From NCBI RefSeq assembly GCF_003790525.1, contig NZ_CP033635.1: 64,000 nt of DNA, one strand, 5' to 3'. Positions within the stretch are counted from its first letter, which is position 1; each line of letters starts with the position of its first letter. The DNA comes from Escherichia coli. Lineage in GTDB: Bacteria; Pseudomonadota; Gammaproteobacteria; Enterobacterales; Enterobacteriaceae. Shown one piece after another: positions 38,643 to 60,562 of this stretch. Under the pieces are notes generated by a model. The model made no database searches. It was not told where the DNA came from and worked only from the letters and a program-made list of their open reading frames with translations. Made by a program: the position numbers and the translations under genes.

Positions 38643-39290
38643 ATGAACTATCGTATTATTCCGGTCACCGCATTCTCCCAGAACTGTTCATTGATCTGGT
38701 GTGAACAAACCCGACTGGCCGCACTGGTCGATCCTGGCGGCGATGCGGAAAAAATCAAACAGGAAGTTGATGCCAGCGGCCTGACACTGATGCAGATCCT
38801 GCTGACTCATGGTCATCTGGACCACGTTGGCGCAGCGGCGGAACTGGCGCAACATTACGGCGTGCCGGTTTTTGGCCCGGAAAAAGAAGATGAGTTCTGG
38901 CTGCAAGGCTTGCCTGCGCAAAGTCGTATGTTTGGTCTGGAAGAGTGCCAGCCGCTGACGCCAGATCGTTGGCTGAACGAAGGCGATACCATCAGCATAG
39001 GGAATGTGACTTTACAGGTGTTACATTGCCCTGGGCATACGCCGGGTCATGTCGTGTTTTTTGATGAGCGGGCAAGGCTGCTGATTTCTGGCGACGTTAT
39101 TTTCAAAGGCGGAGTAGGGCGCAGTGACTTTCCGCGTGGCGATCATAATCAACTGATTTCTTCAATCAAAGATAAATTGCTGCCCCTGGGGGATGACGTG
39201 ACATTTATTCCGGGTCACGGACCATTATCAACTCTTGGTTACGAACGCCTGCATAATCCCTTCCTGCAAGACGAAATGCCCGTCTGGTAA
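38643..39290 (+). CDS. gloC: Metallo-beta-lactamase-fold hydrolase GloC/YcbL (glyoxalase II-like)
   Basis: 215-aa ORF with HGHLDH metal-binding motif. Confidence 0.9.
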
Positions 39291-39299
39291 AGACGTATA

Positions 39300-39330
39300 A
39301 AAAAGCCCGCTTTCACAGCGGGCTTCGTTT
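39300..39330. terminator. Bidirectional terminator between gloC and aspC
   Basis: GCCCGC-TTTCACA-GCGGGC flanked by AAAAAA on one side and TTCGTTT on the other; T-runs follow the hairpin on both strands. Confidence 0.7.
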
Positions 39331-39339
39331 AACTAGCCT

Positions 39340-40530
39340 TTACAGCACGGCCACAATCGCTTCGCACAGCGGAGCCATGTTATCTGGCGTCATCCCGGCC
39401 ACGTTCACACGACCAGAAGCCACTGCATACACGCCAAACTCTTCACGCAGACGCAGTACCTGTTCTTTCGTCAGGCCACTGAAGGAGAACATACCGTTCT
39501 GTTTGATGATAAAGCTGAAGTCGCGGTTTGCCCCTTTTTCCTGCAGCGTATTGACGAACAACTGACGCATACGCTGAATACGCTGGCGCATATCAGTCAG
39601 CTCTTGTTCCCAAATCGCACGTAACGCATCGTTGCTCAGGATGGTGGCAACAACAGAAGCGCCGTGTGCTGGTGGGTTAGAGTAGTTAGCGCGAATCGCC
39701 GCTTTCATTTGGCTGAATGCGCGATCAACGGTCTCACTGTCAGCAGCAACCAGAGTACAAGCGCCAACACGCTCGTTGTACAGGCCAAAGTTTTTAGAGT
39801 AGGAACTGGCAACAATCAGCTCTTTATGCATAGCAGCGAAAGCGCGCAGTCCTTCAGCATCTTCTTCCAGACCACGGGCAAAACCCTGGTAAGCGAAGTC
39901 AAACAGCGGTAACCAGCCTTTCTCAACGGAAAGTTGTGCCAGTGTCTGCCATTGTTCCAGCGTAGGGTCGATACCGGTTGGGTTATGGCAGCAGCCATGG
40001 AACAGCACTACGTCGCCAGCCTGAGCTTCGTTCAGGCTGTTAATCAGTGCATCGAAGTCAAGGGTGTGATTTTCCGCATCATAATAAGCGTATTCACGAA
40101 CTTCCAGACCTGCAGAGTTAAAGACGCTCTTATGGTTCGGCCAGCTTGGGTTGCTCACCCACACACGCTTAACGCTGGTATTTTTTGCCAGGAAATCGGC
40201 AGCCACGCGTAGTGCGCCAGTGCCACCCGGAGTCTGTGCCGTGCGAGCACGTTTGTCATTGATCAGGGCGCTACCTTTACCAAACAGCAGTTCCTGAGTG
40301 CAGCGACCAAATTCAGGGATGCCGTCAATGCCGAGGTAATTTTTGGTGGTTTCATTTTCGAGCAAATACTGTTCAGCCTTTTTCACGCTGGTCAGTACCG
40401 GGGTTTTGCCCGTCTCATCTTTATAGACACCAATCCCGAGGTTAATTTTGCCGGGACGTTCATCGGCACGAAACAGATCGGCCAGGCCCAGAATCGGGTC
40501 GGCAGGAGCGGCGGTAATGTTCTCAAACAT
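39340..40530 (-). CDS. aspC: Aspartate aminotransferase
   Basis: 396-aa [39 protein letters not shown]...; PLP-lysine region SYSKNFGLY. Confidence 0.97.
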
Positions 40531-40659: not shown

Positions 40660-40690
40660 AAAAAAAACAGGACCAACGTCCTGTTTTTTC
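40660..40690 (-). terminator. ompF intrinsic terminator
   Basis: ACAGGAC-CAAC-GTCCTGT flanked by A7 and T6; reads as a hairpin plus U-tract on the ompF strand. Confidence 0.75.
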
Positions 40691-40714: not shown

Positions 40715-41788
40715 TTAGAACTGGTAAACGATACCCACAGCAACGGTGTCGTCTGAACCTACGCCCAGTTTGTTGTCAGAATCGATCTGGTTGATGATGT
40801 AGTCAACATAGGTGGACATGTTTTTGTTGAAGTAGTAGGTTGCGCCCACTTCAAAGTAGTTCACCAGATCAACATCACCGATACCTTCTACGTCTTTCGC
40901 TTTAGATTTGGTGTAAGCGATGGACGGACGCAGACCGAAATCGAACTGGTATTGCGCAACTAACAGAACGTCTTGCGTTTTGTTGGCGAAGCCGCCTTCA
41001 ATTGGCGTAGCGTTACGGGTTTCACCGTAGTTCGCTGCCAGGTAGATGTTGTTCGCGTCATACTTCAGACCAGTTGCCCACTGTTCAGCTTTTTTACCCT
41101 GACCGCGGAATTCGGCTTCCTGGGCGTCGGTACGGTCTGCTGCACCGTAAGCACCTACGATACCAAAGCCTTCGAATTCGTAGCTGATAGAGCCACCGAC
41201 GCCGTCGCCGTTGGAACGCTCAGGAATACCAGCACGTTCGTTTTTGCCCAGGTACTGAACGGCAAAGTTCAGGCCGTCAACCAGACCGAAGAAGTTGGAG
41301 TTACGATAGGTAGCAACGCCGCCTACACGACCAACGAAGAAGTCATCGCTGTATGCCGTGTCACCGCCAAACTCAGGCAGCATATCGGTGTAACCCAGTG
41401 CGTCGTAAACCACACCGTAGTTACGACCGTAGTCGATAGAACCCGCATCAGCGAATTTCAGACCTGCGAATGCCAGACGAGTTTTGTTACCTTTCTGGGC
41501 ATCAGCGCCTTCAGAGTTGTTACCCTGGAAGTTATATTCCCACTGACCGTAGCCGGTCAGATCGGAATTGATTTGTGTTTCCCCTTTAAAACCAAGACGG
41601 GCATAAGTTTTGTCGCCGTTTCCGCCGTAACTGTTTACACCATTGTCTTTAGAAAAATAATGCAGACCGACAGCTTTACCGTACAGATCTACTTTGTTGC
41701 CATCTTTGTTATAGATTTCTGCAGCGTTTGCAGTACCTGCTACTAACAGAGCAGGGACGATCACTGCCAGAATATTGCGCTTCATCAT
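40715..41788 (-). CDS. ompF: Outer membrane porin OmpF (loop-variant allele)
   Basis: 357-aa [41 protein letters not shown]... ending ...VGIVYQF; beta-barrel core matches recalled K-12 OmpF, with substitutions and a short deletion confined to predicted surface loops. Confidence 0.95.
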
Positions 41789-41929: not shown

Positions 41930-42010
41930 CTACCGTGAAAGTGCTACAAAGATAAAGATTTGGTTTCAAAAAGAAAAAATATGTAACCAAAAGTAAAATT
42001 TAAGGAACTT
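41930..42010 (-). promoter_or_regulatory. ompF promoter with tandem OmpR-binding sites (F1-F3)
   Basis: Reverse-strand sequence TTTTACTTTTGGTTACATATTTTTTCTTTTTGAAACCAAATCTTTATCTTTGTAGCAC matches the characterised ompF upstream OmpR-binding region as I recall it; followed by a ~110-nt leader to the ATG. Confidence 0.6.
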
Positions 42011-59441: not shown

Positions 59442-59551
59442 AACAGGCTCGGAAAACGTTTGCGCTTTTTTTGCCACAGGTCAATTCCCTTTTGGTCCGA
59501 ACTCGCACATAATACGCCCCCGGTTTGCACACCGGGAATCCAGGAGAGTTC

Positions 59552-60562
59552 ATGTACTACCCCTTCGTTCGTAAAGCCCTTTTCCAGCTCGATCCAGAGC
59601 GCGCTCATGAGTTTACTTTTCAGCAATTACGCCGTATTACCGGAACGCCGTTTGAAGCACTGGTGCGGCAGAAAGTGCCTGCGAAACCTGTTAACTGCAT
59701 GGGCCTGACGTTTAAAAATCCGCTTGGTCTGGCAGCCGGTCTTGATAAAGACGGGGAGTGCATTGACGCGTTAGGCGCGATGGGTTTTGGATCTATCGAG
59801 ATCGGTACCGTCACGCCACGTCCACAGCCAGGTAATGACAAGCCGCGTCTCTTTCGTCTGGTAGATGCCGAAGGTTTGATCAACCGTATGGGCTTTAATA
59901 ATCTTGGCGTTGATAACCTCGTAGAGAACGTAAAAAAAGCCCATTATGATGGCGTCCTGGGTATTAACATCGGCAAAAATAAAGATACGCCGGTGGAGCA
60001 GGGTAAAGATGACTATCTGATTTGTATGGAAAAAATCTATGCTTATGCGGGATATATCGCCATCAATATTTCATCGCCGAATACCCCAGGACTACGCACA
60101 CTGCAATATGGCGAAGCGCTGGATGATCTCTTAACCGCGATTAAAAATAAGCAAAATGATTTGCAAGCGATGCACCATAAATATGTGCCGATCGCAGTGA
60201 AGATCGCGCCGGATCTTTCTGAAGAAGAATTGATCCAGGTTGCCGATAGTTTAGTTCGCCATAATATTGATGGCGTTATTGCAACCAATACCACGCTCGA
60301 TCGTTCTCTGGTTCAGGGAATGAAAAATTGTGATCAAACCGGTGGCTTAAGTGGTCGTCCGCTTCAGTTAAAAAGCACAGAAATTATTCGCCGCTTGTCA
60401 CAGGAATTAAACGGTCGCTTACCGATCATCGGTGTTGGCGGCATTGACTCGGTTATCGCTGCGCGTGAAAAGATTGCTGCGGGGGCCTCACTGGTGCAAA
60501 TTTATTCTGGTTTTATTTTTAAAGGTCCGCCGCTGATTAAAGAAATCGTTACCCATATCTAA
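59552..60562 (+). CDS. pyrD: Dihydroorotate dehydrogenase (quinone)
   Basis: Track ORF 59525..60562; start trimmed to [21 protein letters not shown] (336 aa). Confidence 0.96.

Follow-up and report, generated by a model that had tools for sequence, protein, structure and literature searches.

What does it mean that the ompF gene of an ordinary Escherichia coli chromosome encodes a porin departing from the K-12 protein in discrete patches? OmpF is one of the main routes by which beta-lactams and quinolones enter the cell and also serves as a receptor for phages and colicins, and a change of its outer surface could thus touch several interactions at once. A first-pass annotation of the analyzed window (the whole stretch of 64,000 nucleotides examined here) had described loop-located changes, including a shortened loop, on an otherwise K-12-like gene and had considered them consistent with diversifying selection on a receptor.

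The ompF locus and its protein

The ompF coding sequence occupies positions 40715..41788 on the minus strand (357 codons plus stop, taken from the ORF list). Its product shows no difference from RefSeq WP_000977905.1, the protein of SMS-3-5 (locus tag ECSMS35_RS11105), which is also encoded by IAI39 and 50579417, and the gene itself is 100% identical to ompF of all three strains. The 24 kb tested around ompF were 100% identical to SMS-3-5 and to about two dozen further genomes. The window is E. coli SMS-3-5, a strain of phylogroup F and ST354 (PMC11537424). With the NCBIfam OmpF equivalog NF007446, the protein scored 751.9 bits (cutoff 583); the PhoE and OmpC models gave 486 and 465 bits, each under its own cutoff. 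The Pfam family PF00267 (Porin_1) is a precomputed assignment for the representative of the identical-protein cluster.

The gene is flanked by asnS (from 42390) and aspC (39340-40530), both on the minus strand, in the same order asnS-ompF-aspC as in K-12, and the surrounding genes (mukFEB, ldtD, mepK, gloC, aspC, ompF, asnS, pncB, pepN) are ordinary core genome. Between aspC and gloC (39290-39340), K-12 is longer by about 172 nucleotides that include two REP-like palindromes and are missing from the window, N21 and 50579417; this reads as a REP/BIME presence-absence polymorphism. On the opposite strand, a 257-aa ORF (40973-41746, plus strand) lies wholly inside ompF; it arises mechanically from the codon bias of ompF, and nothing marks it as a gene of its own. 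The Rfam scan revealed no RNA family at or near ompF; its sole gathering-threshold match in the 64 kb was the PyrD leader (59484-59557, plus strand; RF02373, 97.9 bits).

The 211 nt upstream of the ompF ATG equal those of K-12 apart from an A8-to-A7 run. This run, located upstream of the Shine-Dalgarno sequence (around 41805, 17 nt before the ATG) and within the MicF-targeted region of the 5' UTR, is A7 in the window and N21 and A8 in K-12, 50579417 and STEC276. The OmpR-binding boxes F1-F3 of the promoter (41935..41997, minus strand) match those of K-12 exactly. Strain 50579417 shows a G-to-T change in box F1 and all three boxes are altered in N21 (K-12 positions -211 to -150 from the ompF ATG), while the window is wild type. 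Mutations in the ompF promoter have been linked to lower ompF expression in carbapenemase-producing lineages (PMC6970295). Downstream of the gene, a hairpin read from the sequence (ACAGGAC-GTTG-GTCCTGT followed by T8; 40660..40684, minus strand) is the likely intrinsic terminator of ompF; it is absent from the consensus terminator scan despite apparently fitting its stated rules. The Sec signal peptide (41723..41788, minus strand; codons 1-22, placed by alignment to the PDB 3hw9 precursor and MG1655) and the C-terminal aromatic YQF are retained, both identical to K-12. The window ompF is an undamaged form of the OmpF porin gene that is widespread in E. coli and already listed in databases.

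The protein was compared with K-12 OmpF using the full-length precursor of PDB 3hw9 and RefSeq WP_000977920.1 of MG1655 as reference, both of which match the K-12 sequence used in the first pass. Protein identity to K-12 OmpF (P02931; PDB 2OMF, 3HW9) is 92%. In a codon-aware alignment, the 357-aa window protein is substituted at 20 positions, has one inserted residue in L4 and lacks six residues in L6, which fixes the net change at five residues fewer, where "5-6 residues shorter" had been estimated. Common to both proteins are the locus, the promoter, the signal peptide, the 16-strand barrel, L3, L7, L8 and the C-terminal 92 residues.

Loops were assigned by DSSP on an AlphaFold model of the window allele (16 strands, pLDDT 83), whose best PDB matches are E. 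coli OmpF crystal structures (TM 0.90/0.95, rmsd 1.7 A). Among the PDB matches, no solved structure with window-type loops was found. Two entries, 7FDY ("OmpF1") and 7FF7 ("OmpF2"), are structures of non-K-12 OmpF variants; they score slightly below K-12 against the window allele and are therefore not of the window type.

Extracellular loops account for 23 of the 27 differing alignment columns (L1 3, L2 1, L4 5, L5 6, L6 8). Expressed per position, 23/120 loop columns differ as compared to 4/221 at other mature positions (Fisher p = 3.6e-8), and an even spread of the differences through the barrel was thus not what we observed. No amino-acid change affects L3, L7 or L8. The four non-loop changes (Y112F, V115A, F118I and Y204F, the last being F205 in the window) are conservative; the AlphaFold model puts them in turn T2 and where strands b4, b5 and b8 end on the periplasmic side, with three substitutions falling within beta-strands. 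The first-pass description accordingly needs some adjustment: all six listed patches are present and the signal peptide is identical, but M60K, where L1 ends, and also Y204F had been overlooked, the strands are nearly rather than exactly identical, and one of the supposedly extracellular patches (KFADAGSID) belongs to the periplasmic turn.

Following the chain from its N-terminus, L1 (41606..41650, minus strand, as for all following features; residues 47-61) carries D48, V51 and K60, a cassette that also occurs alone in otherwise K-12-type genes, and L2 (41486..41524; residues 89-101) carries K99. The periplasmic patch (41435..41455) comprises F112, A115 and I118 from the end of b4 over turn T2 to the start of b5, conservative changes seen also in other Escherichia and Citrobacter. 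The constriction loop L3 (41330..41416; residues 125-153) contains seven synonymous and no amino-acid changes. In L4 (41204..41248; residues 181-195), ERAGIPERS stands in place of ER-DTARRS, adding one residue and placing Glu at the K-12 R167 position with R168 retained. L5 (41093..41134; residues 219-232) has six substitutions (D221, A222, E226, F227, R228, Q230), and L6 (40982..41014; residues 259-269) reads PIEGGFAN, six residues shorter than in K-12. Charge is changed relative to K-12 in L1 (G26D, M38K), L2 (T77K), L4 (R167E) and L5. The pore residues are intact: neither the PEFGG motif of L3 nor the acidic D113/E117 nor the basic cluster K16, R42, R82 and R132 is among the 20 substitutions.

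Depth and structure of the divergent block

At the DNA level, the gene shares 90.7% nucleotide identity with K-12 ompF (9.3% divergence), while the neighbour genes differ by about 1%, and all differences lie within codons 40-265. This block of 678 nt (40994..41671, minus strand) contains 58 synonymous and 27 nonsynonymous differences together with two indels (dS 0.51, dN 0.054). The adjoining 39 codons upstream (117 nt) and 92 codons downstream (276 nt; 40718..40993, minus strand, codons 266-357, covering b12-b16, L7 and L8) show no nucleotide difference at all (dS 0, dN 0), and values for the neighbours remain low (asnS dS 0.04, dN 0; aspC dS 0.09, dN 0). Because dS is this high inside the block and zero on both coding flanks, it is a deep haplotype with edges set by homologous recombination and not a set of loop mutations on a K-12-like gene; the number of silent differences contradicts the picture, implied by the first-pass annotation, of loop changes on an otherwise identical gene.

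Block identity across 5,425 records was bimodal, with 486 at >=99%, 12 intermediate and 4,924 at 80-90%. The allele was found at >=99% identity in 484/5,435 records of complete E. coli genomes; out of 5,426 complete genomes, about 9% encode WP_000977905.1. The surrounding 24 kb, in contrast, reached >=99% in 75 records only.

In order to place the block, we used two non-coli Escherichia genomes (E. albertii and a second Escherichia species, L076) together with Citrobacter. With the variable loops excluded, scaffold dS to K-12 was 0.36 for the block, 0.44 for E. albertii, 0.31 for L076 and 0.66 for Citrobacter, a depth about equal to that of the splits between Escherichia species. Rooted bootstraps over 162 codons placed the block inside Escherichia in 100% of replicates, together with E. 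coli K-12/N21 in 14%, and outside K-12, N21, E. albertii and L076 in 68%. Synonymous relative-rate counts (31:13 and 34:12) agree with this placement. At the amino-acid level, relative-rate counts against the outgroups (15:10, 13:11) did not reach significance, and both allele classes carry unique loop states.

The states themselves are of mixed kind. Outgroup states are found at F112 and in TDAQ, with which L5 starts, and A115 and I118 each match some of the outgroups; only the window class has the L1 set (D48, V51, K60) and, in L4, the motif AGIPE. Short L6 (PI-x-GGFANK) is common to E. albertii, L076 and Citrobacter, and since the short form is present in all three, it is probably the K-12 class that gained six residues (TNKFTN). 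The polarity of the "shortened loop" is hence reversed, the short L6 being the outgroup state and K-12 the probable bearer of an insertion. The TNKFTN unit of K-12 shares 9/18 nt with the adjacent TSGFAN unit, placing this pair in the top 4% of adjacent units, a weak hint suggestive of an old tandem duplication.

Parts of the block also occur separately. The 121-nt L1 segment is window-type (>=99%) in 763 genomes, as compared to 486 only for the L4-L5 segment, and in about 280 genomes L1 is of the window type while the remaining block is not. The mosaic allele WP_000977907.1 (STEC276, J3, W21) is identical to the window over nt 91-200 and K-12-type elsewhere, with an additional V93I in a periplasmic turn. 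A third L5 cassette, EESSLGKG, occurs in the alleles of N21, ZJ3920 and B2.3, with a 90-nt stretch that departs from K-12 at 11 nt; it resembles EEATLGKG of L076. The soil strain T2 encodes the K-12 protein with five silent differences at ompF nt 361-450 (the L3 region), mostly matching the window, and this patch looks like a short gene-conversion tract.

Forces behind the loop divergence

Next, we considered which force could have produced and kept this pattern. In pairwise comparison with K-12, the variable loops showed dN 0.176 and dS 1.15 (dN/dS 0.15), the rest of the block dN/dS 0.03 and the whole block 0.11. The highest single-loop value was 0.36 (L6) among loops with a computable ratio; L1 is saturated in dS and yields none. 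The dN/dS check proposed in the first pass, run pairwise against K-12, thus gave values below 1 everywhere in ompF, a test that is weak given the saturated loop dS and that we do not count against selection. Variable-loop dN is 16-fold that of the remaining block and 3-fold that between E. albertii and K-12 (0.06), a pair at a similar synonymous distance. Measured against K-12, loop dN of the window (0.18) approaches that of Citrobacter (0.20), while the window scaffold dN of 0.011 is at the within-genus level. Silent divergence, too, is elevated in the variable loops (pS 0.59 as compared to 0.28 elsewhere in the block), as expected around sites long kept polymorphic by selection. This elevation and the loop contrast with E. 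albertii are two indirect signs in favour of selection over mere tolerance.

The suggestion of diversifying selection is consequently borne out by the concentration of replacements in the loops and their excess over the E. albertii comparison, but not by the dN/dS values. Diversifying or balancing selection on a receptor nevertheless appears to be the most plausible force. The changed loops do include parts contacted by phage, as had been proposed: L5 and L6 are documented as needed for binding of phage K20 (Traurig and Misra 1999, as cited in PMC12032242 and bioRxiv 10.1101/2021.09.21.461324). A literature search for a phage, colicin, CDI or permeability phenotype of the window-type allele found none. 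We tentatively propose that the block polymorphism may date back to, or even predate, the separation of E. coli from E. albertii and other Escherichia species, and may have been kept by negative frequency-dependent selection from phages, colicins or CDI docking on the loops, with the silent peak as its footprint.

The same depth could also have been acquired at once. If homologous recombination brought the block in from an Escherichia-like lineage that is unsampled, and it later spread through phylogroups D/F and piecewise to other groups, there would be no need for long-term balancing selection within E. coli. Sharp boundaries with zero divergence outside the block, a depth equal to inter-species distances, the position outside K-12, E. 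albertii and L076 in most bootstraps and the near absence of intermediates (12/5,425 records) would all fit such an import. A donor, however, was not found: there was no close non-coli sequence among the matches listed when 100,044 species genomes were scanned with a peptide pattern (a list without E. fergusonii, E. marmotae and some further species) or in a search of 5.8 billion proteins, where the nearest non-coli proteins to the window OmpF reached <=87% identity. In addition, all named members read in the window-type 90% cluster are E. coli, and E. albertii and L076, although they have the short L6, are more distant from the block than K-12 is. We therefore regard an import as rather doubtful as the whole explanation; it is compatible with selection, which could afterwards have retained the imported allele.

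Surface loops tolerate change, and relaxed constraint could yield the same spatial pattern. Under neutral drift, any old allele would show differences concentrated in its loops, in line with the low loop dN/dS and with the fact that loops also differ among species. E. albertii, however, at the same synonymous distance, keeps L1, L4 and most of L5 K-12-like. From this contrast in loop dN it follows that the loops were kept under constraint in one lineage, whereas the other exchanged them as a whole. Since drift also leaves the discrete cassettes, the mosaics and the raised synonymous divergence of the loops unexplained, we consider it unlikely.

Selection for altered passage of solutes or antibiotics, for instance through the Glu at the R167 position of the pore mouth, would suit the multidrug-resistant SMS-3-5. 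L4 is indeed remodelled with a charge reversal at this position, and the substitution R167S has been tabulated as increasing OmpF permeability (PMC4690030 Table 1). The identical protein is, however, found in IAI39 and in hundreds of unrelated human, animal and water isolates and is therefore not specific to resistant strains; moreover, neither L3 nor any of the basic or acidic pore residues is altered, and porin-based resistance of E. coli mainly involves ompF loss or promoter mutations (PMC6970295), while the window promoter is wild type. This makes a permeability-driven origin quite improbable. Finally, an assembly or sequencing error or a pseudogene can be dismissed with near certainty, because 484 complete E. 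coli records carry the allele at >=99% identity, many independent complete genomes among them holding 100% identical copies, and because the ORF is intact, passes the curated OmpF model and gives a confident barrel model.

Altogether, the window gene is quite likely a functional ompF of a second, deeply divergent E. coli allele class, carried in a recombination-bounded block and most likely shaped by agents docking on its loops. Its barrel scaffold and trimer-forming core are conserved, as are the constriction by L3, the promoter and the signal peptide, and it would thus be expected to act as an ordinary general-diffusion porin whose outward face is altered in L1, L2, L4, L5 and L6, all inside the block. 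Homologous recombination has wiped out the divergence flanking the block and shuttles single loop cassettes among allele classes, giving rise to mosaics. Rare or different surfaces would be favoured by agents that attach to the loops of OmpF (phages, colicins, antibodies and the toxins of contact-dependent inhibition), and in this way at least two loop sets are most likely kept in the species. The analysis shows that the protein is OmpF, where its differences lie, how the block is built and how deep it is, that mosaics exist and how frequent the allele is; the selective agent, and any change in sensitivity to phage, colicin or antibiotic, are inferred from this.

Relation to known porin polymorphism

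The allele, as well as mosaic, loop-centred evolution of ompF, is already known, and the locus represents a textbook-type receptor polymorphism. A 2021 preprint (bioRxiv 10.1101/2021.09.21.461324) recasts OmpF evolution as mosaic, driven by local recombination of loop hypervariable regions (HVRs). It describes five HVRs at loop apices and one periplasmic, multi-residue gain or loss in the L6 HVR, and five major OmpF groups exemplified by MG1655, SE15, ATCC8739, E2348/69 and CE10, and it cites Chen 2006 and Petersen 2007 for positive selection on ompF; a follow-up on mosaic OmpF evolution is available (PMC12175518). In the window OmpF, variation is likewise confined to discrete hypervariable regions at loop apices over a conserved scaffold, with one cassette found in several backgrounds. 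The allele displays each feature of the mosaic pattern set out in the preprint, including a counterpart of its periplasmic "HVR2" in the patch F112/A115/I118. It likely belongs to the CE10 group, as CE10 is a related lineage.

Our additions are modest. They comprise a block as deep as the distance between species and an L6 indel whose polarity is reversed, both beyond what the accessible text of this preprint covers, and the silent-site peak over the loops. The window is nonetheless a clean worked example of the known ompF pattern. The allele class can affect which hosts a therapeutic phage infects, how sensitive a strain is to colicins and, possibly, how drugs enter. In annotation, K-12 should not be taken as representative, given that about 9% of complete E. 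coli genomes carry a second surface.

The closest parallel is offered by the sister porin OmpC. It is another gene, and for its alleles functional consequences have been demonstrated, while the window OmpF allele is known here from sequence: OmpC loop alleles set the receptor specificity of CdiA-EC536 (PMC5056734), and ST38-type ompC has spread by recombination and affects beta-lactam entry (PMC6970295). In both porins, allele classes are located in the loops and exchanged through recombination.
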